Shown in pieces: positions 14,767 through 35,000 of a stretch of 64,000 bases of DNA. Each line of letters begins with the position of its first letter. The first letter of the stretch is position 1. Source of the DNA: a bacterium (GTDB lineage Bacteria; Patescibacteriota; Minisyncoccia; JAHIHE01); NCBI GenBank assembly GCA_030693205.1, contig JAUYBG010000006.1:68015-132014 (forward strand). The letters run 5' to 3'. The notes below the pieces were generated by a model. It worked only from the letters and a program-made list of their open reading frames with translations. It was not told where the DNA came from and did not search any database. A program made the translations under genes and the position numbers.

Positions 14767-14957
14767 AAATAACGACTTTAACAAAATTCCCTAATAATTT
14801 ATTAATCTCTAAACTGCTAATCCAATTTAACATAGTTTTTAAAAAAATTCAAGAGCTTCCCTTTAAAAAAGTAACATTGAATTATACCAATTTTTACCCA
14901 TTTGTCAAGGTTTGATTTTTGTAATATAATACAAGCAATCAGTTAAACAACTTTTTT

Positions 14958-19493: not shown

Positions 19494-19597
19494 ACAATAG
19501 AGAAATTCTTTTTAACAAATTTATAAAAAAGTAAAATTATTGTTTTTATTCAACCATAATGCTATATTTATATAAGAAAAAATAATCTTTTCTAATT

Positions 19598-20173
19598 ATG
19601 ACGTCAATAACAATCAACCTTATTATCAAAAATCCGGGAAAATTACTTGCCGCTAAAAACGCATTTAGTAAATATGGAATTTTAATAAACCAAATTAATA
19701 AAGAATTCCCCGAAATTCAAGCGGACACAAGCTTGGAAATAGCTAAATATACAGCAATACAAGCTGCTAAAGAATTTAAAATGCCTATGATCAGAGAAGA
19801 CCACAGTATGTTTATAAACGCACTAGGCATTCCCGGTCCATACGCAAATTTTATAGAAAAACATCTGCCAGTTGAAAAATTATTGAAAATTCTTAAGACC
19901 CAAAAAGACAGAAGCGGCTATATGGAAGTTGCAACTGTTTTTGCTGAACCAAACGGCTTTACTTTAGAATATATGTACAAAGTACCTATTTATTTTGAAA
20001 ATAAAATTAATATTCCTGACCCGAAAAATGGCTGGAGCGGAATTATCAGACTCGCAAACGAAACAAGAACATTAACAGAATACCCTGAAGAAGAACGAGT
20101 GAATATATGGAATAAAAATTATATTTCTATCGCTGAATTCTTAATTAAAAATAAAGAAAAATATTTAAAATAA
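19598..20173 (+). CDS. Ham1/RdgB-like non-canonical purine NTP pyrophosphatase
   Basis: NPGKLLAAKNAF, EDHSM and ALGIPGPY blocks resemble the ITPase family. Confidence 0.55.
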   Translation: MTSITINLIIKNPGKLLAAKNAFSKYGILINQINKEFPEIQADTSLEIAKYTAIQAAKEFKMPMIREDHSMFINALGIPGPYANFIEKHLPVEKLLKILKTQKDRSGYMEVATVFAEPNGFTLEYMYKVPIYFENKINIPDPKNGWSGIIRLANETRTLTEYPEEERVNIWNKNYISIAEFLIKNKEKYLK

Positions 20174-20866
20174 TTTTAACATCTCGTTAACCCAATTATA
20201 AACACTTGGATACTTTTTCCACAAACGACTACCTTGTAAAATCAAATCTTTATGATCTGGATAACCGATATTTTTTATTTTTCCATGCAAAGAAATAAAA
20301 TCTTCAGTATCTTGGATTACAGCATTAAACACTTCTGCCATACCCCATAACTTTCCTTGTTCAGTATCCATCTTTCTAGTCTCGGGAAAGTTTTTTTGCA
20401 CAAAATCATAAAATATAAAATGGAGCATTTCGTGAAAAATAGTAAAAAGCTGAAAACTGCGATTATTATAAATAAAAACCTGAAACTCACCTGAATCAAG
20501 AAAACGAGGACAAAAATCAAATATAGAAAAATCGCCAATATATTTTTTCCTTGGCCACGGATACCCATTAAATAACTTACTTACCACTAAAAAGAAATTA
20601 TTTTGTTCTTGATTAATATATTTAATAGTATTTTCACTAAGAATTTTTATTTCTCTGTTATTAGATTTATAAAAATCTATAATGTATTTATTTAAAAATT
20701 TCTTTGGATTTTCAGCTGATTTAATTTCAATAAGTTTCGGATGATACTTCAAAGCTCTTTCCTTCCAAAAATCACACCCTCCAAAATTTGAGCTAAGGTA
20801 AAAATCCCAAGCTTTGACTTGATCTAGTTTTTGATCAAATTTTAATTTTATAATTGGTTGCTTCAT
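20165..20866 (-). CDS. HExxH-motif protein (putative zinc metallopeptidase-like) downstream of radical SAM enzyme A
   Basis: HEMLH motif (TIFHEMLHFIF); same strand, 80 nt after rSAM A. Confidence 0.45.
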   Translation of the reverse strand: MKQPIIKLKFDQKLDQVKAWDFYLSSNFGGCDFWKERALKYHPKLIEIKSAENPKKFLNKYIIDFYKSNNREIKILSENTIKYINQEQNNFFLVVSKLFNGYPWPRKKYIGDFSIFDFCPRFLDSGEFQVFIYNNRSFQLFTIFHEMLHFIFYDFVQKNFPETRKMDTEQGKLWGMAEVFNAVIQDTEDFISLHGKIKNIGYPDHKDLILQGSRLWKKYPSVYNWVNEMLKLF

Positions 20867-20947
20867 AAATAAAACCCACTATCATTCTATCTTTTTTTTA
20901 AGAAAAAATCCAGTGGGTATAAAACCTCCCTTTTTATATTTCACTAT

Positions 20948-22336
20948 TTAACTAACCTGCGCTTGCTTATAAAGATCCCAAACAAGCCATTCGAGCGTCA
21001 TTTTCGCATGTACGCAAAAGCGTTTATCGAGTGCCCAAATAGAACCCTCTTCAAGCTCTGCTTGATATGGACAGCCTCCACCACAAATACCTAAAGCAGG
21101 GCAGCTTTGACATTCCGGCATATTCAGAGGCGATCTCATACTCCATTCTCTGAAATCTTTATCATTGCTGATATTAAAGTCGTTGTCGTAGACATTTGTT
21201 GGGAAATATTTCTTTTTACCAACAAACCCATGGCAAACTCCAATATCTCCATCAGGTGCAATCACTATCTGATTGCCCCCAGTTGCTCCGCAGTCAAATG
21301 GCCAAACTGTCTTTTCGATAAAAGCATTCGCTTTTCTCATTATGCGATCTTCGTAGACGCCTCTTTTTCTAAAAACTTGAAAAGCATCAAGAATAAATTT
21401 TGCCGCTCTTTCGTTGTAACCATTATCCATTTTTCCGTCATTACTAATCAGCAGATTTAATCCTAAATTGGATATTCCGCATTCATCCAGTAAAACCCGT
21501 ATGGTAGCGTCGAAATCACGGATACTTGCCTCTGAAAGAGTGCATGACGCACCGATATTCATACCTGCTTCTTTGCAAACCTGAAAGCCTCTTTTGATGT
21601 CTTGATAAACGGGCTCTCCGCTTGCATAGATCCGGCTGGAGTTAGTTGCAAAGTCATCGCCGTCAATTGATATTGAGACCTGAACATCGTGGCTCTTAAG
21701 CATTCTGGCAATCTCGTGATTTAATAAACTTCCATTAGTCACTAGATTAAGGGTTGTTTTTTTGGGAAGCTTACCACTTTCCATGTACTTTTTAATCTTA
21801 TTTAAAAGCATCTCAAGTACTGTCCAATTCAACAAGGGCTCTCCGCCATAAAAAACAATTGTTTTTTCTAGATCAAACTGTTCAGGATCTTCTGCAATTA
21901 ATCGACAAAAGAAATCAAGTCCTTTAAAAGCTATCTCCTCTGTCATATTACCCATGGGATTATTATTTTTTACAAAACAATAACCGCAACGGAAATTACA
22001 CCTTTCTGTTAGGATGACATAGGCTAAGTGGGGATAAGGCTTGCCAAGCAAATCCATGAAATAATCAATAGCTTTTTTATCTTCTGCGGGATCCTGGATC
22101 AAAACTTTTACATTTTTAAGGGCATCAACCGCTCTTAAAAAAGTTTCTTGATCTTTTGAGCCAACAAGCGCGAGTAGGCTTTGCGAATCAGCGCCTCCCT
22201 CAAATTTCTTAATTATCGGCAGAAGCGCATCCGGAATATAAACTGGCATCATCCGAAGAGAATGATAGCAAGCTATTACAGGTTTTTGCTCAAAAAAATG
22301 AGCGTATCTTGAAAGGAAAAGGGTTGTTCTTTCCAT
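20948..22336 (-). CDS. radical SAM/SPASM peptide-modifying enzyme A with an N-terminal RRE-like domain
   Basis: CNFRCGYC (CxxxCxxC); C-terminal SPASM cysteines (CGATGGNQ...CHGF...CQSCPALGICGGGCPYQ); AGGAGG ahead of the ATG. Confidence 0.8.
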   Translation of the reverse strand: MERTTLFLSRYAHFFEQKPVIACYHSLRMMPVYIPDALLPIIKKFEGGADSQSLLALVGSKDQETFLRAVDALKNVKVLIQDPAEDKKAIDYFMDLLGKPYPHLAYVILTERCNFRCGYCFVKNNNPMGNMTEEIAFKGLDFFCRLIAEDPEQFDLEKTIVFYGGEPLLNWTVLEMLLNKIKKYMESGKLPKKTTLNLVTNGSLLNHEIARMLKSHDVQVSISIDGDDFATNSSRIYASGEPVYQDIKRGFQVCKEAGMNIGASCTLSEASIRDFDATIRVLLDECGISNLGLNLLISNDGKMDNGYNERAAKFILDAFQVFRKRGVYEDRIMRKANAFIEKTVWPFDCGATGGNQIVIAPDGDIGVCHGFVGKKKYFPTNVYDNDFNISNDKDFREWSMRSPLNMPECQSCPALGICGGGCPYQAELEEGSIWALDKRFCVHAKMTLEWLVWDLYKQAQVS

Positions 22337-22433
22337 ACATTACCTCCTTTATTTCTATATAATCTATTTTCCTTTATTCGAACAAGGAAGGAGAAACCTT
22401 TGCTTCCCCATCCCTATTCGGCCGAACAGGTTT

Positions 22434-22577
22434 TTACCATAGCGATTTATCTATGCCCTTGTTGTATCTACATGCGCACTTACACGCACATGTACCACAT
22501 TTGGCTGCATGTACAGTATTTGCAGCATTACCTAGCACCTTAGCGGCATCTACCGCTGTTGGCGAAATAACATCCAT
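22434..22577 (-). CDS. candidate precursor peptide A (47 aa, five Cys)
   Basis: Unannotated ORF MDVISPTAVDAAKVLGNAANTVHAAKCGTCACKCACRYNKGIDKSLW; AGGAGG nine nt upstream; 97 nt upstream of rSAM A. Confidence 0.55.
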   Translation of the reverse strand: MDVISPTAVDAAKVLGNAANTVHAAKCGTCACKCACRYNKGIDKSLW

Positions 22578-22595
22578 TTTTACATCCTCCTGTAT

Positions 22596-22684
22596 GTTTT
22601 AAAAGAACTCATCTGGCTAAATAGCTTCTATTTAGCCATCCTTCCTTGAGCACAACTCTAACAAATCCGGGAGTTTTGTCAATG
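22596..22684 (-). promoter_or_regulatory. conserved promoter plus 5'-UTR hairpin element, copy A
   Basis: Minus-strand TTGACA-16nt-TAGAGT, then a 10-bp-stem hairpin ggctaaatag/ctatttagcc and agatgagttcttttaaaa before the SD; copies at 29237-29322 and 31934-32019. Confidence 0.5.
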
Positions 22685-22780
22685 ACAAGTTGCCATATAA
22701 AATAATCTTACAAAAAACATTCCCGCATTTATATACAAGAATGTTTTAATAACCAGAATAAACCTCGCCGATCTTTCATT

Positions 22781-23098
22781 CTATTTTTCCACAATATCTA
22801 CGATTTTAATTTCGGTAAAAGGCTGTTTGTGCCCTTTGTGAACTCTTTGGCGTTCCTTTGCCTTGTATTTGGTCAAAGTCACTTTTGGCAATCTTCCTTG
22901 TTTCAAGACATCGCCGGTCACTTTCGCGCCTTTGATGACAGGAGTGCCAATGACCGTCTTGCCGTCATTGTTAATAAGCAAAACATTGTTAAAATCAATC
23001 TTATCGCCTTCCTTGACGCTTAATTTTTCCACTTTAATTTTATCGCCGGGAGAAACCAAATACTGCTTCGCTCCGGATTCAATCACTGCAATTTTCAT
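22781..23098 (-). CDS. rplU: 50S ribosomal protein L21
   Basis: Typical L21 sequence (MKIAVIESGAKQYLV...). Confidence 0.9.
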   Translation of the reverse strand: MKIAVIESGAKQYLVSPGDKIKVEKLSVKEGDKIDFNNVLLINNDGKTVIGTPVIKGAKVTGDVLKQGRLPKVTLTKYKAKERQRVHKGHKQPFTEIKIVDIVEK

Positions 23099-23306
23099 AT
23101 AAAAATAATTATCTGAATTAATATAATATTTACTTTAACAAATAATGGGTGGAATGTCAACCTCTTTAGTCTGTAAGCCCTCTTAATGCTTTACCCCGTC
23201 AGAAGTTGTAATCTAACCTTGCTTTTAAATGAAAACTGAAGGCGAAGCCGATTTATCTTTAAATATAAGGAAATAAATGAGATTTTCCTAAAACTTCTGA
23301 CCGGGG

Positions 23307-23336
23307 TTGACAAATCCTGAATTTCTGCTATACTTT
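23307..23336 (+). promoter_or_regulatory. sigma70-like promoter (TTGACA-17-TATACT)
   Basis: ttgacaaatcctgaatttctgctatact, a near-consensus -35/-10 pair. Confidence 0.35.
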
Positions 23337-23494
23337 AGATAATTTACTAACGCACTAGATTTACCTATGATTAGTTTCTGCAATCAAAGCAAAAAGGGTC
23401 AAATGCTCAATACCGGCTTAAAAACCGTGCAATTCCGCTACCGCGCGAACCTAGGCGACATAAAAGAGATGGCAGAAAAAATCTAATAGTGAAT

Positions 23495-23526
23495 CCGGTG
23501 CGGGAGCAATTCCCGTATTTTTTTAA
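23495..23526 (+). terminator. intrinsic terminator
   Basis: cgggagcaattcccg hairpin followed by tattttttt. Confidence 0.45.
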
Positions 23527-23747
23527 AAAAGGAGGGGATGTCGTTCTTTTACAATTTAAATAATTTTCTTCAGGGCAGAAATTTGATTGCACAAAAATGT
23601 AATCAATAACTGTCTTGAAGATACAAAAATCTCGAAGCAGAATGAAAATCACGAATAGGATAGAATGGGAATGTACAGAATACGAATACTTCATCTGGAA
23701 GTAAAACAGAACCGAAATAAAATAAAGCCCCTTAGGGCAGGATAAAA

Positions 23748-24536
23748 GTGATTGAAATGGTAATCAAGAAAGAAGGCAATGGCGAAGTAGGAAAAATTGA
23801 ACAGATTAAACTGCCAAAGTGGCTCGAAGAACTGATAACGAAAAAATGGTTTCTGTATCTGTTTGCCGCTGTAGTGCTTGTGATGGTTATCGGATTCTCA
23901 TTGCCGGCAAGTACGCGAGACAATATTGCAAATGCAATATTTGCTAAAACTGCAACTGATGGTTCGCTCTCGTCTGGCGGCAGTTCGTCTGGCGGCGGAA
24001 TGATGGGTAATAGTCAACCTGTAGTCGGAACGGCAACTCCAACCCCGACAGAGGGGAAGGAGAAGAATCAGATCAGTGCGGATCGTAATGACCCGATTCT
24101 TGCGCAAAGAATTAACCGTCTGGAAATAGGCGGAAAATCTTTAATGCCAATTGGCAATCTTCCGCAAGAGATAAGAATTGGAAAATCAAATCTCTATATT
24201 ACAAGCATGATTGTCAATAATAAAGTTAGCGGCTATTTAGAAAATCGTGGCGCCAATAATATAAATATAATAGGTGAAAAAAAATTCACTTTCATAACGA
24301 AAGATTATCTATATTTAACGGAATTACCTATAATTTATATAAACGGCCAAAGTAGCTCAAGCGCTTCCACCTTTTTGAAAGCTGGAGAAAAAAAATCATT
24401 CCAGACAATTGATACGCAAAACATAAACGAATATCAAAAGCTTGGAGGATTAAAAGACGATCTCTTAAAAATAAACAATTTAGTAAAACAATCCGCTTAT
24501 ATACAAATAAGCGAATTCAGCACTTCAGATGCATAA
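23748..24536 (+). CDS. hypothetical membrane-anchored protein
   Basis: 262 aa, N-terminal TM helix, Gly/Ser-rich linker. Confidence 0.5.
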   Translation: MIEMVIKKEGNGEVGKIEQIKLPKWLEELITKKWFLYLFAAVVLVMVIGFSLPASTRDNIANAIFAKTATDGSLSSGGSSSGGGMMGNSQPVVGTATPTPTEGKEKNQISADRNDPILAQRINRLEIGGKSLMPIGNLPQEIRIGKSNLYITSMIVNNKVSGYLENRGANNINIIGEKKFTFITKDYLYLTELPIIYINGQSSSSASTFLKAGEKKSFQTIDTQNINEYQKLGGLKDDLLKINNLVKQSAYIQISEFSTSDA

Positions 24537-24562
24537 GTAAGTATATGCATCTTTTTTATTTT

Positions 24563-25984
24563 TTATGGATTAACGTTGATCTGAACTCTATCCATAATAG
24601 GACCGTAACAACCATTCTTACTAGTTATTCTTAACCACCCCTCATACTTACCAGCTGCCGCATATGTCGTCGATGTCATACCTCCAGTATATGTTACATC
24701 AAATAATGCATTACCGAGAACACCTAAAACACCAAGTAATAAATCACAATTCGTTGTTTCACTTTTTGCATAATCTGATGTCCATCCTAACCATGGGGTA
24801 GTATAATCGATCTCATATCTATCTACCCCGTTATCAAAACCCGGACCATCACTGAGAACATCGGTTTTTAAATTTGGATAAGCATAGTCCGCTGAATAAG
24901 TTCTTCCATCGAAATAAACAGTTTCACCCACTTTAACGCTTACTTGTTTTCCCATAGGCATAAAAGTTGTCCCTACCCTTAAATCCGCTTTCATACAATG
25001 ATACAACCCATCGCTTGCCCAAGACGGATTTGAACAAATATCTTTGCAGGCAAGCTTTCCCGAAACAAAAATTTTCGCCGGATGTCGCGGGTAATCGGTT
25101 GCGATGCAGGCAGGAACTCCGGTAGCGGTAAAATTTACTACATTACTGGCAATAAAAGTTGAGCTGGAATACGGATCAGTTTCCGGAAAAATCGCCTGAA
25201 GTTTTACATCATCGGCACAAAATGTAGGAAGCGTAGACAAAATAGAAAAAATACCGCTAGCGTTCGTTTGTATTTGAGTATATCTCATTCCATCAATTCC
25301 TGCCCCATCATTAATAACATATACTCTTATATTGGTGTTAACCACGGGATTACCGCTTGCATCAGTAAGCTTCCCTGCCAGAGTTACAGAAGCGCCAACA
25401 GCCGCGGATGCTCCGTCTGCGGGAGAGGTTAAAGTGATTTTAGCGGGAGCATTAGGACTGACAAAAACATCTGCTTCCATATTATCTATGCAATGGCACG
25501 GCGCATTAACTGTTCCATTTCCCAATGAACCGGGTCCATCGCACATCTCAAGCGGATCGCTTGCCGTCGGACTATAACCTACCGCACTCCACGGCATCGC
25601 CGGATTTTTAAGCACTAGAATATCGGGGTTGATCGTGTTAATAATCACCCAAGAAGAAATGGCCAGAAGAAGGCCGATAATTGCCGAATTAATCGTGTGT
25701 TTGGCATCTTCGATGGCTGAAGGATTGCCGGCGGAAGTCAGATATCTTGCGCCCCCGATGACGATCGCGCCCATCGCCACAATACCGACTACGGAAATAA
25801 GAAAAGTATAAAGCCCGGAAAGATAGACTTGAACTTTTGCGCCGGGTGGAATGCCGGGAATAGTGACCAAAGCGTTATAAGTTGTCTGAGCTAAAGCGGA
25901 ATTCGAATAAAAAAATAAGCTTAGTAAAAATATAATGCTAGCTAAAACTATTTTTTTGTTTTTGCTAAAAATTTTTAAAATCAT
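24563..25984 (-). CDS. large secreted/membrane protein with an N-terminal TrbC/VirB2-like (T4SS pilin-like) domain
   Basis: Signal peptide; YLSGLYTFLISVVGIVAMGAIVIGGARYLTSAGNPSAIEDAKHTINSAIIGLLLAISSWVI pattern typical of CPR pilin-like proteins; large extracellular C-terminus. Confidence 0.45.
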   Translation of the reverse strand: MILKIFSKNKKIVLASIIFLLSLFFYSNSALAQTTYNALVTIPGIPPGAKVQVYLSGLYTFLISVVGIVAMGAIVIGGARYLTSAGNPSAIEDAKHTINSAIIGLLLAISSWVIINTINPDILVLKNPAMPWSAVGYSPTASDPLEMCDGPGSLGNGTVNAPCHCIDNMEADVFVSPNAPAKITLTSPADGASAAVGASVTLAGKLTDASGNPVVNTNIRVYVINDGAGIDGMRYTQIQTNASGIFSILSTLPTFCADDVKLQAIFPETDPYSSSTFIASNVVNFTATGVPACIATDYPRHPAKIFVSGKLACKDICSNPSWASDGLYHCMKADLRVGTTFMPMGKQVSVKVGETVYFDGRTYSADYAYPNLKTDVLSDGPGFDNGVDRYEIDYTTPWLGWTSDYAKSETTNCDLLLGVLGVLGNALFDVTYTGGMTSTTYAAAGKYEGWLRITSKNGCYGPIMDRVQINVNP

Positions 25985-26014
25985 ATTGTTTTAAAGAAAT
26001 TATCTATACCGTTA

Positions 26015-26172
26015 TTATACAATTATTGGGGTTTTTAGACAAGCGTGAACTATATATTTTCCCAAATTTTATCTTTATCTTTATCTTCCTGCCGCACCGG
26101 CAAAATTACGGTAAAAGTCGAGCCTTTACCTTCCCCTTCCGAGATTACCTTAATTTTTCCGTGACAGTACTT
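26015..26172 (-). pseudogene. histidine kinase 3'-end fragment, copy 1
   Basis: DNA-level homology to the last ~50 codons of the HK gene at 32065-34050 (cctgccgcaccggcaaaattacggtaaaagtcgagcc...); the +strand track ORF 26026-26220 is a wrong-strand artefact. Confidence 0.5.
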
Positions 26173-26850
26173 TTATTTTTTCTTTCCAATAATAATTACT
26201 CGCCGACTATTAATATTTAATTTCTCCATATCATAATTTCCATATACTGAAGATATGAATAAGTTATTATCGTTAAACTTTCTTTTAAGTTCTGGAAAAG
26301 TATAATACCTTACTCCTTTATTACTATGATCTTTGTCTACGACAAGCTCCATCTTGGTAAAATCAAATTTATATGGAGCTTTCGGATTTTCTCTTAAATA
26401 GCCGATAACCCTAAATACATTATCGCAGTCCAGTAAAAACATTCCATTCTTTTCCATTATTTTAGTAATATTTTTCAATGTTTCGTCAGGCTCAATCATT
26501 CTAAGATCAGAAAAAAATAAGAATATTTTATTATACTTTTTTTTAAGATCTAATTTATGAATATCCTGTGTAAAAAAATTTATCTCTAAATTTTCTTGTT
26601 TGGCGTGCTTTTTGGCAACCTCGATCAAATAATCGGAAAAATCCAAACCATCAATATTATATCCTCTTTTTTTAAGCTCAATAGTATGCCGTCCGTTACC
26701 GCAAGCAACATCTAATATCTTGTCTCTCTTTTTTAATTTTAAGGATTTAATAAGAAAATCAACGTCTTTTTGCAGCTGTTCCGGGGAAAAATATTCTTTA
26801 TGCTCTTCTAGATAAGAACCTTTTGGACCATAATACCGTTTTAGACTCAT
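26173..26850 (-). CDS. class I SAM-dependent methyltransferase
   Basis: Motif I (ILDVACGNGRH) and post-I acidic residue. Confidence 0.8.
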   Translation of the reverse strand: MSLKRYYGPKGSYLEEHKEYFSPEQLQKDVDFLIKSLKLKKRDKILDVACGNGRHTIELKKRGYNIDGLDFSDYLIEVAKKHAKQENLEINFFTQDIHKLDLKKKYNKIFLFFSDLRMIEPDETLKNITKIMEKNGMFLLDCDNVFRVIGYLRENPKAPYKFDFTKMELVVDKDHSNKGVRYYTFPELKRKFNDNNLFISSVYGNYDMEKLNINSRRVIIIGKKK

Positions 26851-26864
26851 AATTTTATTTATAA

Positions 26865-27608
26865 TTATATTTTTACTCCAACAATAATCATTCTCTTGCT
26901 GTTAAAATCAAAATTCTCTCCTTCATAAGATCCATAAACTTTTTTTATCCTTAAACCATTTTCTTCTAAGATTTTTTTAATTTCTGGAAAAGAATACAGT
27001 CTTAAAATATATTCGGATTTTTTTTGTTTTCCTTTTTCTGTAATTTTTAGTTTTACATGGTCTTGGAAAGTAATTGGATTAAAAGCATGATTTTCCAAAA
27101 TATTTTTTTTACCATTTTTGTATTTAAAAACACTTTTAAAATGAGATAAAAAATAACAAATATTCCGAGTGTCAATTATAAATTTCCCTTTACGATTTAA
27201 TGATTTAGAAATATTTTCAATAATTTTTCTGTTGTCGCTATCGCTAAAATATCCGAATGAAGTAAAAAGATTAAGAATAACATCAAATCTTTTTTTAAAT
27301 AAAAACTTACAAATATCCCCATAAATAAAATCTGCTTTAACGCCTTTTTCTTTGGCAATATTTTTTCCAACTCTTAAAAAAGGTTTTGAATAATCAATGC
27401 CCACCACATTATATCCTCTTTCTGCTAATCCAATCATATGTCTGCCCCAGCCACAACATAAATCTAAAATTTTGTCTTCTTTTTTTAATCTTAAAATATT
27501 AATGATAAAATCAATTTCTTTTTTGGTTCTCTTGTCGTCAAAAAGAAAATAATAAAGCTCTAAATAATCTTTATTAAAATAGTATTTCCACCAATTATTT
27601 TTAATCAT
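26865..27608 (-). CDS. class I SAM-dependent methyltransferase, paralog of 26173-26850
   Basis: ILDLCCGWGRHMIGLAERGYNVVGIDYS. Confidence 0.8.
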   Translation of the reverse strand: MIKNNWWKYYFNKDYLELYYFLFDDKRTKKEIDFIINILRLKKEDKILDLCCGWGRHMIGLAERGYNVVGIDYSKPFLRVGKNIAKEKGVKADFIYGDICKFLFKKRFDVILNLFTSFGYFSDSDNRKIIENISKSLNRKGKFIIDTRNICYFLSHFKSVFKYKNGKKNILENHAFNPITFQDHVKLKITEKGKQKKSEYILRLYSFPEIKKILEENGLRIKKVYGSYEGENFDFNSKRMIIVGVKI

Positions 27609-27681
27609 TTTATTTTTTTATTTATTAAACCTTTGGTTTATTTTAGTATAGCATAAATAAAAATTTTATCAATATAAAAAT

Positions 27682-27707
27682 AACTGTAAAATTTGAATTT
27701 TACAGTT
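27682..27707 (-). terminator. hairpin plus T-rich tract at the stop of rSAM B
   Basis: aactgtaaaat/attttacagtt perfect inverted repeat. Confidence 0.35.
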
Positions 27708-29025
27708 ATAAACTTTTTAAATTCCAGCAAGTCTGATCGGCATGAACATCATCGCCAAATTTTGACATAGATATTCCCTTGCATCCTCCATTGCACGACA
27801 AAGAAAATTTACATACTAGACATTCTTGTACTATATCCATCGAAAACGGATTTGTTTTTTCCCAAATCGAACGGATATTATTATTCGTCAAATTTCCTAA
27901 AACCGGAAGTCGCGAATGTGGACAAGGAGTAATTTTTCCGTCGAAAGTTATATTACAAATACTTCTTCCTGCTTCACATCCTCTTATTGCTTTTATAGAT
28001 TGATCTATAAGAAAAGGAAAAAATACCAATTTCTCGTAAGAAATCATTTTGGGGTATTTTTTTTCTAACAAAACCAATGTTTCGGTCGCGATTCTGAGTT
28101 GGTCGCTTGTTAATTTAGAAAGAGAATTTGCTCTTCCTTCTTGCATACATCTAAAAGCAATAAACCAGTCTATTCCTAAATCATAAACAGCTAAAAATGT
28201 TTCTTCTATTTTATCAAAGTTTAGATTATTAACCGTCATTGCGCAGCGAACATTCATTCCCTGATTTTTAAGAATCGTAATCGCTCTAATGGCTTTTTCG
28301 TATACTCCTTTTCCTCGAATAAAATCGTGTATCGTTTCTGGACCATCAATGCTTACTTGAATTACCGATAAACCTGTTCTCGATAGTTTTGCCGCTCTTC
28401 TTTTAGTTACCAATATTCCATTGGTGCTAAGCGAAACGCTGACACCTTCTTTCGTTGCTCTTTCGATTATTTCATCAAGGCAACAGACAAGCAATGGCTC
28501 TCCGCCACCAAGACCAAGATAGAATATTCCATTATCCAATAGCTGCTTTTCTATCGCAAATATTTGCTCTGCAGATAAAGCATTTTTTGTTAAACCAGAT
28601 CCTGTATAGCAATGCTTGCATCTTAAATTACAAAGATCAGTTAATTCCCAAAAAACTATTGAAGGGAATTTTAATTTGGGAAATACAATAGGTTTATCGT
28701 CTGTATTATTGGAAAATTTTTTAGTTGATAATATTATGCGTCTATTACAGCTATCAAATAAACCAATTTCTCCAATCTGATTTACGAAAGCAATAATTGT
28801 TTCATCGTTTATATTTTTATGCCTTCTTTTTATTTCCTGAACAATGTCACTAAGACTGATTTCTCCTGTGCATAATTCTATAATTTCTATTCCAATTTTA
28901 TTTACCCGAAAACATATTTGATCAGTTTCTATGGCTAGCTCTACTGGCGGTTTAACTAATCCACCAAAATTTTCTCTGCGATGGCGTACCCCTTTTGTCA
29001 AGTGTGGCTTAAAATCTTGTTCCAT
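27706..29025 (-). CDS. radical SAM/SPASM enzyme B with an N-terminal PqqD-like RiPP recognition element
   Basis: N-terminus (VNKIGIEIIELCTGEISLSDIVQEI) is PqqD-like; CNLRCKHC; SPASM C-terminus (CLVCKFSLSCNGGCKG). Confidence 0.8.
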   Translation of the reverse strand: MEQDFKPHLTKGVRHRRENFGGLVKPPVELAIETDQICFRVNKIGIEIIELCTGEISLSDIVQEIKRRHKNINDETIIAFVNQIGEIGLFDSCNRRIILSTKKFSNNTDDKPIVFPKLKFPSIVFWELTDLCNLRCKHCYTGSGLTKNALSAEQIFAIEKQLLDNGIFYLGLGGGEPLLVCCLDEIIERATKEGVSVSLSTNGILVTKRRAAKLSRTGLSVIQVSIDGPETIHDFIRGKGVYEKAIRAITILKNQGMNVRCAMTVNNLNFDKIEETFLAVYDLGIDWFIAFRCMQEGRANSLSKLTSDQLRIATETLVLLEKKYPKMISYEKLVFFPFLIDQSIKAIRGCEAGRSICNITFDGKITPCPHSRLPVLGNLTNNNIRSIWEKTNPFSMDIVQECLVCKFSLSCNGGCKGISMSKFGDDVHADQTCWNLKSL

Positions 29026-29111
29026 TATTAACCTCCATATAATTCAATTTCTTGTCTAAATAAAATATTTGGAATTATTGCCTTTTAAAAAACAATAATT
29101 CCAAAACCCGT

Positions 29112-29219
29112 CTAATCTCCGGCATAAGTTGGGAGCATTACGCATCCTGTAGATATCCTTTCTATTACTGGACTTTCTTGCTCCGAATCTTTCTCTGTCT
29201 TAGAATTTTCTAAACCCAT
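29112..29219 (-). CDS. candidate precursor peptide B (35 aa)
   Basis: MGLENSKTEKDSEQESPVIERISTGCVMLPTYAGD; gaggaggtgaaaaaATG; hairpin ggaattattg/caataattcc between it and rSAM B. Confidence 0.5.
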   Translation of the reverse strand: MGLENSKTEKDSEQESPVIERISTGCVMLPTYAGD

Positions 29220-29236
29220 TTTTTCACCTCCTCAAA

Positions 29237-29322
29237 TTTTAAAAGAACTCATCTGGCTAAATAGTTTCTATTTAGCCATCCTTCCTTGCGTATAACCCTA
29301 GCAAATCCAGGGGTTTTGTCAA
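29237..29322 (-). promoter_or_regulatory. conserved promoter plus 5'-UTR hairpin element, copy B
   Basis: TTGACA-16nt-TAGGGT and the same hairpin, with loop tttc instead of gctt. Confidence 0.5.
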
Positions 29323-29334
29323 ATACTGACTCCC

Positions 29335-29580
29335 GCTGATTACTTATATTGGGGTTTTTAGACAAGCACGAACTATATATATTCCCAAATTTTATCTTTA
29401 TCTTCCTGCCGCACCGGCAAAATTACGGTAAAAGTCGAGCCCGCGCCTTCCCCTTCCGAGACCACCTTAATTTTTCCGCCATGCTTGGCTATGATCTGCT
29501 TGGCGATAAAAAGTCCCAGGCCGGAACCGTTCGGATTGATATAATTGGATTTTTTCCCGCGTGAAAATTTTTGAAAAATC
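29335..29580 (-). pseudogene. histidine kinase 3'-end fragment, copy 2
   Basis: ~240 bp homologous to the last ~75 codons of HK 32065-34050 (ATP-lid to C-terminus), with the stop region mutated. Confidence 0.55.
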
Positions 29581-30332
29581 TATTTTAGACCACCTTTCCA
29601 TTCCTTTTCTAATTCTTCGATCGATTTTTCGAAACCATTTTCAATAATTTTTAAATTTTCCTCGGAATTATTTAATCGCGACAATCTTTGGTAAGTTTTT
29701 TTAAACTTATCCCATCCGTAAGTATTGATTAAAAATCTGACAAAAGAGCCAACTTCCGGATAAATTATTTTAGAATCAACCTTTTCCCAATTTTTATTAT
29801 CAATTAAGTTTTTGATAGAATACAGTTTTTTCTGACTCAATAACTCTTTGGAAATTATATCAATATCCTTACCGAATAAATTTCCTTCCATAAACTGAGC
29901 TAATCCCTCGCAAAACAAATATATCGATAACCCAAGGGATAAAGACAAAAAATGAGTATCTTCATGCTCGCCGATAAACTGGCATTTATCATTATAAATC
30001 GTATGAATTTCAAATTTGTTTGTTTTTGGTTCGCTATTAACTAATTCAAAATCTCCCCAAATCACATTACCAGGGCTGTCATCGCCCATTAAAGATGCTT
30101 TGCTTTTTAAGGACGGATAAATATAATAATGAATAATTTGCTTATTTTTTAAATCAAGAAACGATAAAATTTTATTGTGATGTTTTTCTTTTAGCTTAAT
30201 AATTTTATAAATATCATTTTCAGCTAAAGAATTTTTGAGATAGTAAAAAACATAATGGTTGCTTTTTTGTTTAATCCATTTTTGCCTCAAATAATCGTTT
30301 TTATACCACGGAATTTCTTGTTTTATTTTCAT
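29580..30332 (-). CDS. HExxH-motif protein downstream of radical SAM enzyme C
   Basis: IGEHEDTHF motif; 250 aa; directly after rSAM C. Confidence 0.45.
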   Translation of the reverse strand: MKIKQEIPWYKNDYLRQKWIKQKSNHYVFYYLKNSLAENDIYKIIKLKEKHHNKILSFLDLKNKQIIHYYIYPSLKSKASLMGDDSPGNVIWGDFELVNSEPKTNKFEIHTIYNDKCQFIGEHEDTHFLSLSLGLSIYLFCEGLAQFMEGNLFGKDIDIISKELLSQKKLYSIKNLIDNKNWEKVDSKIIYPEVGSFVRFLINTYGWDKFKKTYQRLSRLNNSEENLKIIENGFEKSIEELEKEWKGGLK

Positions 30333-30406
30333 ATTGATATATTAGCTTAAATATTATACCAAACAATAAAAAAATTAGCCATTATTGTGTTTAAATGGCT
30401 ATAGCT

Positions 30407-31909
30407 TTATTCAAAGTTTAATTTTACTAATCCCTTATTTATTTTTTCCACAAGTTCACGCCTGCAATATGGTTCTAATAGACTACCTATTGTTACATAG
30501 GCATCAAACCGACATCCTCCGCCACAAATAGGAACGAACGGGCAATCTTCTGAAAGACATTTATCCAGATAGCTAAAATCCATAAATTTTGCATCATCGG
30601 TATTAGCCGTTGAATCTATGTTTCCAAAAGAAAATCCATCTCTTCCTACTGTGCTTATGCATTTAAGCAATGCTCCGTCTGGCTCTATTGTAGCCGAATT
30701 TATAGCTCTCGCGGTACACCAAGGACCGACTAAATATTCTTGAGGAATTACAAATCCTCTTTTCTTTGCTTCCTTGCAAAGCCACAGATATTTATCAGCG
30801 CTCTCGCTAAAACTTAATCCAAATTCATTAAGGTAAGAGTCCGGCGCTCGCTTGCCCATATCTCCGCAAATAGTTGGAGCCACTATACCAAAAGAGAATT
30901 CTATTTTATCCTGCAGTTTATTTTCTGCCAAAAAATCAAACAGCTGCGGTATTAAATCAACATTCTGCCGGTCAAAATTGACTCTAAGGTGAATTTTTTT
31001 AACAAAACCTTGATTTATAGAACTCAAGATATTTTTTGAAATTTTATCAAATGTACCCTTGCCGTCTTTTCTGAACCTTCTTAAGTCGTGTACTTTTCCG
31101 TATCCATCAAGAGTTATCTGAACTCTATCAAGGTTGCATCCGTTTAAGAAAGAGGCAATTTCTTTATCAAAAAATTCACCATTTGTCATTATGCCGAGTT
31201 CAAGTGCTAAGTTTTTTTGCTTGGCTATCGTGTGCAGTTTTGGCAAAATAAATCTGATTGTCTTTTTATTCAATAACGGCTCGCCCCCGTACAGAACTAC
31301 TCTTAGCTTATTGCAACCAGCATGGTTACCTAGATAAGCATCACACCAATTCACTATTTCATCGGCTATTTGAATTGACATTGATTTATGTTTTTCTATT
31401 CCTCTCTCGAAACAGTAAGGGCAGGCCAGCTGGCAATTTCTAGTAAGGACAAGATATATTCCGAAAGTTTTATCATCCAATCTGGCCTTATGGAATAGCT
31501 CTTTGTATTTTAGCTTTTCGTTTAATTCCGCAGGAACGAGCATTTCCATTTTTACGAGCTCATTTATGTAATCGCCTAAATACGAACCAGTAATATTAGA
31601 TTGTCCATTGTTTGTAATTTCATCGATTTCTCTTTTTAGCCGTCCGGTTAATCTTACTGTGCTTGTAGTCAGCGTATTTCTAGCGATGATTTTATCGCTG
31701 TTTTCATATTCAATCCAAAACACAAATCGAGACCATTTCAGTTTCACATCGTTCACCTCTTTGTCATTGATATATTTTTGGGGAAGTTTTATTAAACCTC
31801 CCCCTTTGCTTATGCGGTTAATAACCGCAGCCATCTTTACCCATATCGCCGGTACGGGTTCCGGAATCAGTGCCTTTTTGGAGCACTTCAAAATCTTGGT
31901 TGCCGTCAT
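30407..31909 (-). CDS. radical SAM/SPASM enzyme C
   Basis: CQLACPYC; SPASM (CLSEDCPFVPICGGGCRFD). The track start (31909) overlaps candidate precursor C; the true start may be M26 (31834) or similar. Confidence 0.75.
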   Translation of the reverse strand: MTATKILKCSKKALIPEPVPAIWVKMAAVINRISKGGGLIKLPQKYINDKEVNDVKLKWSRFVFWIEYENSDKIIARNTLTTSTVRLTGRLKREIDEITNNGQSNITGSYLGDYINELVKMEMLVPAELNEKLKYKELFHKARLDDKTFGIYLVLTRNCQLACPYCFERGIEKHKSMSIQIADEIVNWCDAYLGNHAGCNKLRVVLYGGEPLLNKKTIRFILPKLHTIAKQKNLALELGIMTNGEFFDKEIASFLNGCNLDRVQITLDGYGKVHDLRRFRKDGKGTFDKISKNILSSINQGFVKKIHLRVNFDRQNVDLIPQLFDFLAENKLQDKIEFSFGIVAPTICGDMGKRAPDSYLNEFGLSFSESADKYLWLCKEAKKRGFVIPQEYLVGPWCTARAINSATIEPDGALLKCISTVGRDGFSFGNIDSTANTDDAKFMDFSYLDKCLSEDCPFVPICGGGCRFDAYVTIGSLLEPYCRRELVEKINKGLVKLNFE

Positions 31910-31916
31910 TGCTCAT
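31818..31916 (-). CDS. candidate precursor peptide C (32 aa)
   Basis: MSNDGNQDFEVLQKGTDSGTRTGDMGKDGCGY; the same gaggaggtgaaaaaATG context as precursor B. Confidence 0.45.
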   Translation of the reverse strand: MSNDGNQDFEVLQKGTDSGTRTGDMGKDGCGY

Positions 31917-31933
31917 TTTTTCACCTCCTCAAA

Positions 31934-32019
31934 TTTTAAAAGAACTCATCTGACTAAATAGCTTCTATTTGGTCATCCTTCCTTACAATAACCTTAACAA
32001 ATCTCAATAATTTGTCAAT
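31934..32019 (-). promoter_or_regulatory. conserved promoter plus 5'-UTR hairpin element, copy C
   Basis: TTGACA-16nt-TAAGGT; hairpin gaccaaatag/ctatttagtc (one mismatch). Confidence 0.5.
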
Positions 32020-32064
32020 CTTTAGCTTTAATGTACAAGTTATAGATTTTGCAAGTTTTATCCC

Positions 32065-34050: not shown

Positions 34051-35000
34051 TTGTTTTTTAGGTTATCGGCTAAATCTTGATAAGCAGTTAAAATTTCCAG
34101 AGGAAAAACAGGAGAGAATACTTCTATCAAAATTTTAAGCTGAGCCCTTCTGAGATTCCCTAAATTATCTTTATAGTTTGGAAGGTGTTTTTTTGCGAGC
34201 TTTAACATATTTTTCATTTCTGTTAATTCAGGCAACTTTTGAGTATAAAAATTAAGCTCGCCTTTTTCTTGTTCTTCCTTCCAATCATGCAAATAAATTG
34301 CCGGAGCATAAGCAATTGACCATAATTCTGCTAATGTTAAATTTTCAGTAGGCTCAACGGAGAAAAAAAATTCTTGTATAGTTTTGGTAGTCATCCAATA
34401 AGGAATATCTCTGAGTTTTAAAATGTCACCAGCAACCTCTTTATCTACATACTCTACCCCAAGTTTTTTATACTCGGAAAGATAACTGTGTTGTTCGTTC
34501 TCTGTCCCTGCAAGTTGAATTAAACCTCCATACATTAATCTTTTAAGACCATTATTAAAACCTGTCACATTTTTGATTCTAGAAGCCGCTATTATATCAA
34601 CAAATTCACCTAAACCCTTCACCGAATTAACTAAAGAACGAATATCATTTCGTTTTTCTTTCATTTGCTGAGGAGTTGGAGGAAAATCAGATCTATCAAA
34701 AAAATCATCAATAAAATGTGTAGCAAACGCCAGATACGCCTTCTTACACATCTCTTCCTTGTCGTTAGAAGGAATAGCCATAATAAATGCTTGTATTTTC
34801 GAATCATTAAATCCGTGAACCGAACTTGTATGAAAAAAATCATTGAATCCAATTAATGCAACATCTCGTTTAAATTGCATTTCAGCTTTATTTACTGCTC
34901 TCATTATTTGATTCGATTCTTTCACTCTAGAGAAAAGCTTTTGTAATTTATCTATGTGTGATATTTCTATACCTTTACGAAACCCAATCATAGACTCCAT
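34047..35000 (-). CDS. hypothetical protein, stop overlaps the HK start; contains a DDxxD motif
   Basis: 317 aa; FIDDFFD motif. Confidence 0.45.
   Translation of the reverse strand: MESMIGFRKGIEISHIDKLQKLFSRVKESNQIMRAVNKAEMQFKRDVALIGFNDFFHTSSVHGFNDSKIQAFIMAIPSNDKEEMCKKAYLAFATHFIDDFFDRSDFPPTPQQMKEKRNDIRSLVNSVKGLGEFVDIIAASRIKNVTGFNNGLKRLMYGGLIQLAGTENEQHSYLSEYKKLGVEYVDKEVAGDILKLRDIPYWMTTKTIQEFFFSVEPTENLTLAELWSIAYAPAIYLHDWKEEQEKGELNFYTQKLPELTEMKNMLKLAKKHLPNYKDNLGNLRRAQLKILIEVFSPVFPLEILTAYQDLADNLKNK

Follow-up and report, generated by a model that had tools for sequence, protein, structure and literature searches.

A stretch of 64,000 nucleotides of a Patescibacteria genome (the window) very probably carries three independent minimal operons for ribosomally synthesised, post-translationally modified peptides (RiPPs); we put the probability of this explanation, with its inferred steps, at roughly 85%. 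On the minus strand, three cassettes each pair a tiny, unannotated peptide ORF with a radical SAM (rSAM)/SPASM enzyme (Table 1). The locus is a further instance of an already known type of peptide natural-product locus, and the kind of system itself is not new. A preliminary description of this DNA had proposed three rSAM/SPASM cassettes, each with its own short precursor ORF and a common promoter/5'-UTR element; all of these features are present. Its RiPP reading is upheld by the best enzyme matches, which are RiPP maturases, by the small ORFs, which are kept beside homologous enzymes, and by the element, which is real. The gene content given for each cassette also stands, and the order is corrected: along the minus strand, cassettes C and B come first and cassette A last, with some 3.5 kb of unrelated genes in between (a second histidine-kinase (HK) fragment, one pilin-like and one plus-strand gene, and rplU). 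The cassettes are AT-richer (GC 0.275-0.347) than the flanking housekeeping DNA (GC 0.42-0.44; 16-20 kb), and no exporter, immunity or regulator gene was found in them. The neighbours of the three precursors are present as NCBI MDP3057147-158.

Table 1. Features of the three-cassette region (positions in the window)
Feature	Coordinates	Strand	Description
Histidine kinase (HK)	32065..34050	-	full gene; two GAF stretches, HisKA, HATPase_c (Pfam); 3' end recurs behind cassettes C and B
Cassette C	32019-29580	-	32-aa precursor, rSAM/SPASM enzyme, HExxH protein
Element copy C	31917..32019	-	TTGACA-N16-TAAGGT, AAGGAAGG, hairpin, CAGAUGAGUUCUUUUAAAA, AGGAGG; covariance model R1 111.8 bits
Precursor C	31818..31916	-	32 aa, MSNDGNQDFEVLQKGTDSGTRTGDMGKDGCGY; conserved ATG behind element; single Cys, ...KDGCGY-stop
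Stem-loop C	31780..31803	-	between precursor C and rSAM C; -16.1 kcal/mol, z = -4.1
Enzyme C	30407..31756	-	rSAM/SPASM; start GTG 31756 (449 aa) or 31747; motif CQLACPYC
HExxH protein C	29580..30332	-	HEDTH and CEGLAQFME; putative MA-clan Zn peptidase
HK 3' fragment 1	29347..29579	-	68 in-frame codons and stop (29373-29579), then shared downstream spacer
Cassette B	29322-26173	-	35-aa precursor, PqqD-fused rSAM/SPASM enzyme, two methyltransferases
Element copy B	29220..29322	-	promoter/5'-UTR; covariance model R1 123.7 bits
Precursor B	29112..29219	-	35 aa, MGLENSKTEKDSEQESPVIERISTGCVMLPTYAGD; core GCVMLPTYAG[DT]-stop; single Cys
Stem-loop B	29068..29105	-	17-bp with T-rich tail; separates precursor B from rSAM B; z = -3.6
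Enzyme B	27706..29025	-	rSAM/SPASM, fused N-terminal PqqD-like (RRE) domain; motif CNLRCKHC
Methyltransferase 1	26865..27608	-	SAM-dependent (Pfam); orthologue in L027 76%, in L029 38% identical
Methyltransferase 2	26173..26850	-	SAM-dependent; paralogue of methyltransferase 1, 34% identical
HK 3' fragment 2	26024..26163	-	after cassette B; 37 in-frame codons, stop and spacer
Cassette A	22682-20165	-	47-aa 5-Cys precursor, rSAM/SPASM enzyme, HExxH protein
Element copy A	22578..22682	-	directly downstream of rplU; covariance model R1 118.9 bits
Precursor A	22434..22577	-	47 aa, 5 Cys, MDVISPTAVDAAKVLGNAANTVHAAKCGTCACKCACRYNKGIDKSLW; core CGTCACKCACRYN
Stem-loop A	22390..22409	-	between precursor A and rSAM A, core of longer helix; z = -3.7
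Enzyme A	20948..22336	-	rSAM/SPASM, FibroRumin-like; motif CNFRCGYC
HExxH protein A	20165..20866	-	FHEMLHF; family without annotation

Predicted precursors, maturases and accessory proteins

The small ORFs proposed as precursors are conserved beside homologous enzymes in independent assemblies, and homologous cassettes recur in other metagenomes (loci designated by L numbers), as had been suggested. A-type cassettes (L018-L020, L022 and L031) contain a 47-aa ORF, a 462-465-aa rSAM protein and a 233-234-aa protein, C-type cassettes (L023-L026 and L032) an rSAM protein and a protein of about 250 aa, and B-type cassettes a precursor, PqqD, rSAM and methyltransferase (L029/L030) or rSAM and methyltransferase (L027). 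Across distant homologous cassettes each ORF keeps its C-terminal core unchanged, and the leader is variable. Precursor A has orthologues in L018-L022 and L031, and all seven cassettes examined have the same core, CGTCACKCACRYN, with synonymous differences only. Precursor C (orthologues in L023, L026 and L032) ends in TRTG[DN]M[GH]KD[GS]CGY-stop with the core TRTGDMGKDGCGY-stop; between the window and L023 the residues of this tail are the same and the codon changes are all synonymous. The precursor B core is kept in L027, where codon differences are six synonymous to one non-synonymous, and also, beside an enzyme just 46% identical, in L029/L030. In this comparison of independent assemblies the precursor cores are under purifying selection. 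The exact sequence of none of the three peptides was found in a collection of 15 billion proteins. A stem-loop lies between precursor and enzyme gene in every cassette, that of cassette C having counterparts with other sequences in L023, L025, L026 and L032; such a hairpin may raise the precursor-to-enzyme transcript ratio.

All three enzymes exceeded the Radical_SAM cut-off (PF04055, 29.5 bits) with 57.2 (A), 89.4 (B) and 59.9 (C) bits. With the SPASM model PF13186 (cut-off 21.5), enzyme B scored 26.9 bits and enzyme A just under the cut-off (21.2 bits), and no match was obtained for enzyme C. Within the SPASM pattern, Cx9-15Gx4C ... Cx2Cx5Cx3C ... C, the Cys motif reads CQSCPALGICGGGC in A and CLVCKFSLSCNGGC in B, with the variant CLSEDCPFVPICGGGC (Cx4C) in C, and the upstream C...G....C and the downstream Cys are present in all three. 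Judged from the sequence, the SPASM feature is present in A and B and in a variant form in C, and the CxxxCxxC motif and Cys-rich SPASM-type C-terminus ascribed to all three enzymes can be read from the translations. The listed ORF of enzyme C (30407-31909) is too long at its 5' end: its homologues are 445-450 aa long and begin with MNDVKLKW or MKLKW, which places the start at one of the two GTG codons in Table 1 and abolishes the overlap with precursor C. An N-terminal extension of about 100 aa occurs in all three enzymes. The preliminary description had assigned RRE/PqqD-like N-termini to A and B; the PqqD-like assignment holds for B, whereas the extension is not restricted to A and B and is found in C as well. 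The N-terminus of enzyme B scored 19.5 bits with the PqqD model PF05402 (cut-off 23.4) and is homologous (E = 1.5e-12) to a PqqD-like protein encoded separately in L029. The extensions of A and C align with the N-terminal region of CteB.

The proteins encoded behind the enzymes differ between cassettes. Protein HExxH-A has counterparts 3' of the enzyme in L018, L019, L020, L022 and L031 and belongs to a family of 342 cluster representatives; in 50 members of the family, E178 does not vary and H145, E146 and H149 hardly do. It matched nothing in Pfam or the PDB and a relation to known peptidases was not detectable; a few family members give only faint zincin hints (DUF3267). HExxH-C, with counterparts 3' of the enzyme in L023, L025, L026 and L032, matched Peptidase_MA_2 (PF13485) with 30.5 bits (E = 3.8e-7; gathering cut-off 32.4), and its HEDTH and E142/E149 are invariant in four orthologues. 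The two methyltransferases of cassette B contain generic class-I methyltransferase domains only (Pfam) and scored 61.1 and 48.1 bits with the daptide-type RiPP methyltransferase model NF041820, under its cut-off of 175.

Relation to known RiPP systems and predicted products

None of the three enzymes reached the cut-off of a curated NCBIfam maturase model. The architecture had been called that of sacti-/ranthipeptide clusters; the RiPP type is retained and the specific class label is at most tentative, all enzymes scoring under the curated family cut-offs. The nearest solved structures are CteB (5wgg) for A (E = 1e-23, residues 39-453) and C (E = 2.3e-18), and SkfB (6efn) for B (E = 1.7e-22).

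Enzyme A, for which 1116 homologues were found, matched best the FibroRumin maturase model TIGR04136, end to end (residues 8-457; 386.9 bits, E = 1.3e-115), a near miss of the cut-off of 400. The FibroRumin system is known from a bioinformatic definition, comprising this maturase and a Cys-rich target (TIGR04135, cut-off 45), and no paper on it was found in a literature search. Cassette A likewise has a short Cys-rich precursor immediately upstream of the enzyme, and NCBI names homologues of enzyme A with 48-50% identity, from Patescibacteria and Thiorhodovibrio, FibroRumin maturases. It departs from the definition in that both the enzyme and the precursor (19.9 bits with TIGR04135, E = 5.5e-4) stay under the cut-offs and in that the Patescibacteria clade has a conserved 233-aa HExxH partner of an unannotated family. 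By these similarities cassette A would be classed as a divergent FibroRumin-type system. The precursors of cassettes B and C are outside curated families and their enzymes are far under every curated cut-off. Precursor B matched no NCBIfam family even at E <= 10, the MftA and PqqA models included, and precursor C matched no curated precursor family. Enzyme C has as best models CefB (Cys-every-fifth), the geopeptide maturase and TIGR04463, over nearly its full length, but the scores (201.7, 186.8 and 182.7 bits) amount to between a third and a half of the cut-offs (600, 400 and 525, respectively). Unlike these systems, it has an MA-clan-like HExxH protein as partner, and the single Cys of precursor C is no Cys-repeat core as in CefB. 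The SCIFF/ranthipeptide maturases (CteB; PapB, NF047865; TIGR03974) share the combination of rSAM, SPASM and a putative N-terminal RRE, and act on cores with Cys. Scores with TIGR03974 were nevertheless 100.1 (A) and 92.5 (C) bits against a cut-off of 425, those with NF047865 were 155.4 (A), 94.8 (B) and 123.5 (C) bits against 340, and the precursors do not resemble SCIFF, those of B and C having a single Cys.

In the proposed pathway, the N-terminal domain would bind the leader and the rSAM core would install cross-links in the peptide core. These would most likely be Cys-derived thioether bridges, because every core keeps a Cys and the nearest characterised relatives, CteB, PapB and SkfB, are thioether-forming maturases. 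The HExxH proteins may act as Zn-peptidases that cut off the A and C leaders, and the product of cassette B would be methylated further.

For cassette B, an unlikely alternative is that a peptide-derived cofactor or signal is made in the manner of mycofactocin or PQQ, and not a cross-linked peptide. Enzyme B would then act on the C-terminal ...PTYAGD (for example, by decarboxylation or a C-C link centred on Tyr), and the small molecule would be completed by the methyltransferases. The best NCBIfam match of enzyme B is indeed the mycofactocin maturase MftC (TIGR03962, 128.3 bits, compared with 98 for SkfB and 95 for PapB), and PqqE matches too; as in pqq and mft, there is a PqqD-type RRE, which is fused to the enzyme here and encoded on its own in L029. 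At the C-terminus, a short core with a conserved Tyr stays strictly unchanged even where the enzymes are only 46% identical, and the cassette has neither a protease nor an exporter gene. Against this, the MftC score is half of the cut-off of 265 (SkfB, 98 against 300; PqqE, 94 against 381), the precursor fits no MftA or PqqA model, the Cys in the core is invariant, and the nearest solved relative is the thioether-forming SkfB. Moreover, B-type cassettes add one or two class-I methyltransferases and lack Mft or Pqq accessory genes, with no MftD/E/F-like or PqqB/C-like gene in the cassette. It is still far less probable, and in our view highly improbable, that proteins or small molecules are the substrates of the enzymes, as they are of anSME or haem/cofactor-type enzymes, and that the small ORFs are incidental. 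Enzyme B does match the haem-related AhbD and NirJ (114-122 bits), and the anSME model gave 103 bits for enzyme A and 55 for C. These alternative matches are all far under the cut-offs, however, and the anSME scores are far lower than those of the RiPP maturases that match best, so that the anSME possibility against which the RiPP assignment was to be set falls away. A PqqD-like, putative RRE domain is present in enzyme B, and the small ORFs keep sequence, position and frame across assemblies, with synonymous-only changes in the core.

A common promoter/5'-UTR element and repeated histidine-kinase ends

A module of about 105 nt, comprising a promoter, a structured 5' UTR and a strong Shine-Dalgarno (SD) sequence (AGGAGG), is common to all three cassettes, and the ATG start codon follows in identical register behind each copy. 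Its presence in three copies, as described before, was confirmed, and further copies precede precursors in other genomes. Aligned as repeats, the copies at 29237-29322 and 31934-32019 are 91% and 70% identical to copy A (22597-22682). A 51-nt consensus of the element has 3 matches in the window against 0.00 expected from shuffles, and a covariance model search placed the element within the window at precursor genes only. It also occurs in L023/L024, L031 and L032, L022 and L021 have divergent copies, and the A-type and C-type precursors of other genomes are likewise preceded by it. Among six close sequences, 98.9% of helix positions are paired and two pairs are compensatory. Searches with Rfam 15 (E <= 1) gave no match over 19500-34500 and only tRNAs in the whole window. 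The common module could serve to co-express the three precursors.

The 3' end of the HK gene is repeated behind cassettes C and B. Both the HK 3' fragment and the full GAF-HK gene named in the preliminary description are real (Pfam, repeat comparison, tblastn), and a second fragment was found after cassette B. Fragment 1 begins immediately after the HExxH-C stop, and fragment 2 is 93-95% identical to it; no promoter element was found downstream of fragment 2, nor a response regulator near the HK. In L032, an HK orthologue lies directly upstream of a C-type cassette, and HK, element, cassette C and HK fragment are all there. The junction CTAAAATAG|ATTTTT between HExxH-C and HK is identical in that genome, which suggests accretion by homologous recombination: cassettes C and B may have been added successively into the 3' end of the HK gene, each insertion leaving an in-frame HK 3' remnant. 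The repeats are not equally similar throughout (HK part 90%, spacer low, element 70-91%), which implies a recombination history more complex than one event.

In another reading, the element would do more than provide a promoter and an inert leader. As a cis-regulatory RNA switch, it would toggle translation of the three precursors together: one UUCUUU tract could pair either with an SD-like AAGGAA close to the 5' end of the element or with the true SD (GAGGAG), in competition, with a stabilising factor deciding. Minimum-free-energy folds do differ in this sense (AAGGAA:UUCUUU in copy A and L023, UUCUUU:GAGGAG in copies B and C), L032 has a compensatory A-U to G-C change in AAGGAR:YUCUUU and there is one more compensatory pair in the hairpin, and between conserved flanks the hairpin arms vary from 4 to about 23 bp; the restriction to precursor genes in the window fits as well. 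We nonetheless consider the switch doubtful: the close sequences number just six, the UUCUUU:GAGGAG pairing, with three G-U pairs, is weak, an Rfam match is absent, and the hairpin is equally a DNA palindrome and could be an operator. Conservation of the element may, moreover, mirror only recent duplication or gene conversion. Duplication on a larger scale, with the repeated HK 3' ends and elements as scars left when paralogous units of HK and cassette were duplicated locally in tandem and then decayed, seems improbable to us too. The direct repeats do lie in tandem orientation, and a tail (EDKDK...) common to both fragments and absent in the intact HK could come from a lost paralogue. Each fragment, however, begins exactly where the preceding cassette ends, L032 has the same HExxH-C/HK junction but other downstream DNA, and L023, L031 and L018 carry the same cassette types in unrelated contexts. 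The three enzymes belong to different families without nucleotide similarity, which indicates that whole units were not duplicated.

A further reading, tentative and less likely than not, is an integrase-free cassette array, in which unrelated C-type and B-type RiPP cassettes are bounded by HK 3'-end repeats and a portable module is exchanged across enzyme families. That module might consist, just as tentatively, of the promoter, the 5'-UTR switch and even the leader start FEVLxxGxDS. If so, any related genome with the HK gene could gain or lose a cassette via homologous recombination after DNA uptake, and a genome that measures about 1 Mb and has few regulators would have a single control point for several peptide products. 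As in tRNA-gene islands and integron arrays, a single site carries successive cassettes, a copy of the target gene's 3' end delimits each of them, the newest cassette adjoins the intact gene, and expression signals are common to all; unlike there, an integrase and an attC-like site are absent in or beside the array. The repeats consist of 140-230 nt of coding sequence, which, in the two genomes that have them, points to homologous and not site-specific recombination.

Organization of the three cassettes

Three operons lie on the minus strand of the region; their precursor, enzyme and partner genes are conserved, and they have expression signals in common. Every feature named in the preliminary description, which had proposed three radical SAM (rSAM)/SPASM cassettes (A, B and C), each with a precursor ORF and a shared promoter/5'-UTR element, was present in the ORF list or the repeat search; a second 3' fragment of a histidine kinase (HK) gene was missing from it. 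The three rSAM RiPP pathways occupy about 9 kb of genome and are the AT-richest DNA nearby, with the window minimum in G+C (0.275) at 26001-28000. This stretch covers both methyltransferase genes (MT1 and MT2) and the 3' part of the enzyme B gene; housekeeping stretches are at 0.37-0.44.

Features of the cassette region in window coordinates
Feature	Position	Strand	Basis
317-aa ORF	34047-35000		
HK (GAF/HisKA/HATPase)	34050-32065	minus	Pfam
Element copy C	32019-31934	minus	repeat search
Precursor C ORF (32 aa)	31916-31818	minus	ORF list and upstream alignment
Radical-SAM enzyme C	3' end at 30407	minus	ORF list
HExxH-C protein	30332-29580	minus	ORF list
HK 3' fragment 1	29579-29347	minus	repeat search
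Element copy B	29322-29237	minus	repeat search
Precursor B ORF (35 aa)	29219-29112	minus	ORF list and upstream alignment
Radical-SAM enzyme B	29025-27706	minus	ORF list
MT1, MT2	27608-26865, 26850-26173	minus	ORF list
HK 3' fragment 2	26163-26024	minus	repeat search
T4SS-pilin-like gene	24563-25984	minus	
262-aa ORF	23748-24536	plus	
rplU (L21)	22781-23098	minus	
Element copy A	22682-22597	minus	repeat search
Precursor A ORF (47 aa, 5 Cys)	22577-22434	minus	ORF list and upstream alignment
Radical-SAM enzyme A	22336-20948	minus	ORF list
HExxH-A protein	20866-20165	minus	ORF list

Three genes separate HK fragment 2 from element copy A. The product of the pilin-like gene is secreted, is 473 aa long and carries a T4SS-pilin domain at its N-terminus (PF18895, 36 bits), with some Ig-like hints; the adjoining 262-aa ORF matched no family and includes a Gly/Ser stretch of low complexity. 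The rplU gene stands alone, and an rpmA (L27) motif was not found across the 64 kb. Cassette A starts 98 nt past the rplU stop, and the same arrangement of a solitary rplU followed by cassette A is repeated on Logan contig L017; Logan run SRR13727537 contains the contig of the window. At the other end, the HK start overlaps by 4 nt the minus-strand 317-aa ORF, which has no Pfam or NCBIfam match, and three further ORFs upstream are likewise without a family match. Searches with Pfam and NCBIfam found no response regulator among the ORFs upstream of HK and no transporter, immunity or regulator gene in the cassettes.

Precursors, maturases and partner proteins

The decisive question for the small ORFs was whether they are conserved beside homologous enzymes elsewhere, and all three are. 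A-type cassettes (47-aa ORF, 462-465-aa enzyme and 233-234-aa partner) were found again in five loci from other assemblies or metagenomes (L018-L020, L022, L031), with peptides that have PT.ED...VLGN...HA..CGTCACKCACRYN in common; in L021 the A-type peptide is contained within a longer called ORF. The C-type cassettes of L023/L024, L026 and L032 encode the peptide ..FEV[LF]..G.DS.TRTG[DN]M[GH]KD[GS]CGY*, and the B-type peptide ...GCVMLPTYAG[DT]* occurs beside an 81%-identical enzyme in L027 and beside one of only 46% identity in L029/L030, where the PqqD domain is a separate gene and not fused to the enzyme. Codon differences among loci in the precursor cores are synonymous: 6-7 of the 13 codons of core A differ between the window and L018 with 0 amino-acid changes, and the tail of precursor B shows six synonymous versus one non-synonymous difference. 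Such invariant cores suggest conserved physiological roles, for instance in signalling, as cofactors or in host interaction, rather than fast-evolving bacteriocins. The exact sequences of precursors A, B and C were absent (0/3) from a collection of 15 billion proteins, in which the flanking proteins are present as MDP3057147-158, and the precursor genes are unannotated in the NCBI record; standard pipelines therefore miss them.

Two observations concern related loci. In L025 (~10253-10385) a C-type precursor reads MDRRNHRFEVLHKGKNSGKE..., followed by a frame shift and then ...GDMGKDGCGY*, which reflects either an indel in the assembly or pseudogenisation of the precursor. In L029 the split B-type cassette (32-aa precursor, PqqD, rSAM, MT) has a divergently oriented Cas12a (Cpf1)-like gene (1093-4818; 1241 aa, REC1 and RuvC domains) about 700 nt upstream.

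The Radical_SAM domain was detected by Pfam in all three enzymes. A SPASM domain had been claimed for all of them; it scored above threshold in enzyme B, just under threshold in enzyme A and was not detected in enzyme C, the translation of which shows a variant motif, CLSEDCPFVPICGGGC, in the SPASM region. A PqqD-like N-terminus had been proposed for enzyme B; its 76 N-terminal residues are homologous to the stand-alone PqqD-like protein of the split cassette (E = 1.5e-12). In NCBIfam, enzyme A narrowly missed the FibroRumin maturase model (386.9 bits, cut-off 400) in an end-to-end alignment, and precursor A matched the FibroRumin target model weakly (19.9 bits versus 45). We class cassette A as a divergent FibroRumin-type system; the FibroRumin family is defined bioinformatically alone, and a literature search found no papers mentioning it. 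Enzyme C comes nearest to the maturase families CefB, geopeptide and TIGR04463, with 183-202 bits versus cut-offs of 400-600, and enzyme B is nearest to MftC (128 bits versus 265), then to SkfB, PapB and PqqE. Precursors B and C matched no curated precursor model, and their families (GCVMLPTYAGD* and TRTGDMGKDGCGY*) are without one. Both cassettes are members of the rSAM/SPASM RiPP class that fall outside every curated family.

Homologues of enzyme C are 445-450 aa long and begin MNDVKLKW or MKLKW, which places its start behind GAGGTGA, at the GTG at 31756 or 31747. In the NCBI record the annotated product is 494 aa long and extends over the precursor gene. That a 500-aa ORF is the true enzyme C and the 32-aa ORF a frame artefact was considered and rejected, given the homologue lengths and the conservation of the peptide in L023, L026 and L032. 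Each of the three enzymes was searched against viral contigs without a match, and phage carriage of the cassettes is without support from these searches. Enzyme B has just one further full-length relative (37% identical), in a different cluster (L028, 136-3143) that includes another rSAM/SPASM gene; between the two enzyme genes lies a Cys-containing ORF of 73 aa, and the cluster looks like a RiPP family of its own.

The HExxH-A family comprises 342 cluster representatives and is unannotated: the 233-aa partners have no curated model, and no relative was detected in Pfam or PDB. D15 and E178 do not vary in an alignment of 50 members, and H145, E146 and H149 hardly vary. In the C-type partner HEDTH and CEGLAQFME are invariant among orthologues, and HExxH-C narrowly missed Peptidase_MA_2 (30.5 bits versus 32.4, Pfam). 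Profiles of both families (50 sequences for HExxH-A) gave noise alone against PDB, and single-sequence AlphaFold models of both proteins had a pLDDT of 38. Since hhalign gave a probability of 0.5% between them, they were treated as unrelated families. MT1 and MT2 are paralogues (34% identical), and methylation is taken as part of the B pathway because MT1 orthologues occur in L027 (76%) and L029 (38%).

We infer a route in which RRE-guided radical chemistry would cross-link the invariant cores, after which the HExxH proteins, as putative leader peptidases, would remove the leader in cassettes A and C and methylation would follow in cassette B. The nearest solved structures are those of CteB for enzymes A and C and SkfB for enzyme B, both thioether-forming. 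A thioether is the most likely cross-link because Cys is retained in each core and CteB, PapB and SkfB, the closest relatives that have been characterised, form thioethers; we put its formation in the core of A at a probability of about 0.5, and in the cores of B and C it is somewhat more doubtful. For cassette B, whose enzyme has MftC and PqqE among its nearest families, a mycofactocin- or PQQ-like small product is the alternative, which we regard as unlikely.

A literature search found no description of these cassettes in Patescibacteria, the Candidate Phyla Radiation (CPR). Surveys attribute few or no BGCs to Patescibacteria (PMC11613949, PMC8692599), so the locus is a useful and concrete addition. 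The uncurated precursor families B and C and the 233-aa HExxH partner family are small, concrete targets for heterologous expression.

The shared promoter/5'-UTR element

Aligning the sequences upstream of the small ORFs places all three starts at one matching ATG, 5-7 nt past a conserved AGGAGG. The 51-nt consensus of the element gave three matches versus 0.00 expected in shuffles, and a covariance model found no copies beyond these in the 64-kb window. In its 5' part TTGACA is separated by 16 nt from an extended -10 (TGnTAnnnT), and copy A is listed with 10 of 12 matches; then follow AAGGAAGGAUG, a hairpin (GGCUAAAUAG-AAG-CUAUUUAGCC), CAGAUGAGUUCUUUUAAAA, AGGAGG and AUG. Elsewhere copies were found solely via protein-guided loci: close copies ahead of C-type precursors in L023/L024 (GCA_043956535.1) and L032 (GCA_017973895.1) and ahead of the A-type precursor in L031, divergent copies upstream of A-type precursors in L022 (38 bits) and L021 (25 bits, covariance model), and, in L027, a version with a ~23-bp stem whose homology is recognisable. 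An Rfam search over the region (E <= 1) and an exact-pattern scan of GTDB representative genomes gave no match, and 16 matches of an element 19-mer in JGI metagenomes were all rejected as chance on inspection.

Copies A and B are 91% identical over 86 nt despite unrelated genes, the SD region of the C-type L023 is that of window copy A and not of copy C, and the B-type precursor of L027 opens with the C-type leader motif LEFEVLREGTDS and has clear nucleotide similarity to window precursor C. Judged by these comparisons, the promoter/UTR/leader module appears to have been exchanged among cassette types.

The hairpin arms range from 4 to ~23 bp across copies and the flanks are conserved. Pairing in the two helices reaches 98.9% across six close copies, and each helix has one compensatory pair, a pattern that is suggestive only. 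In folding, the UUCUUU tract can pair with an upstream AAGGAA or alternatively with the SD GAGGAG; the 5' UTR may act as a translational switch, but these features would suit a stabilising stem-loop at the 5' end, or a DNA operator, just as well. Each precursor gene is followed by a stable stem-loop (z = -3.6 to -4.1), two of them terminator-like, with counterparts of different sequence in other loci. Such a stem-loop is the usual RiPP arrangement, in which the precursor transcript exceeds the enzyme transcript.

The 5' UTRs also contain an SD-like AAGGAAGG that abuts an AUG opening a 3-codon mini-ORF, which extends into the hairpin (22636-22647, 29276-29287 and 31973-31984, minus strand). It reads AUG GCU AAA UAG (M-A-K) in copies A and B and AUG ACC AAA UAG (M-T-K) in copy C; L031 has AUG AUG GCU AAA UAG and L032 a 9-codon version. 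Because the SD-AUG spacing is very short, its translation is doubtful.

Histidine kinase repeats and a proposed cassette accretion

Both HK 3' fragments are open, in frame. Fragment 1 (IFQKFSRGKK...LPVRQEDKDKIWEYI*) begins at the codon following the HExxH-C stop and fragment 2 (HGKIKVISEGEG...EDKDKDKIWENI*) 9 nt past the MT2 stop; they are 93-95% identical mutually and 80-90% to the intact HK, the tail of which (QGR*) differs. In L032 the order is HK (tail QGR*), element, precursor C, enzyme C, HExxH-C and a decaying HK 3' fragment, with a junction, CTAAAATAG|ATTTTT, identical to that of the window and followed by a promoter and cmk in place of cassette B. This identity argues that the cassette C/HK junction was inherited or transferred as a unit. 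HK relatives were sought in genome contigs and none was found, so the insertion site can be compared in L032 alone. In the simplest interpretation, HK 3' repeats at both ends would let a cassette enter any HK-bearing genome via homologous recombination; on this model, based on two genomes, B would have arrived first and C second, each arrival leaving one HK remnant. A rival explanation of the repeats is local duplication with subsequent decay. The shared module and the HK 3' repeats give a testable picture of accessory-pathway acquisition and co-regulation in streamlined genomes. Least expected at this locus are its arrangement as an array and the portable promoter/UTR/leader module.

Repeats and mobile genes were also seen near related cassettes. 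In L023 the C-type cassette lies, together with VWA and DruA-like genes, in a 9-kb segment that has one copy of a direct repeat of ~1.6 kb on either side (1203-2801 and 12170-13764). The repeat copies are 85-100% identical and consist of a spacer and two ORFs (172 and 160 aa); the right copy begins exactly at the HExxH-C stop, so that, as in the window, a repeat abuts the last gene of the cassette. An IS3-like pair lies downstream of this cassette (14305-15376) and an IS30-like integrase upstream of the A-type precursor in L022 (2057-3046). In L018 the A-type precursor is preceded, at a distance of 300 nt, by a gene for a large serine recombinase (8023-9456).
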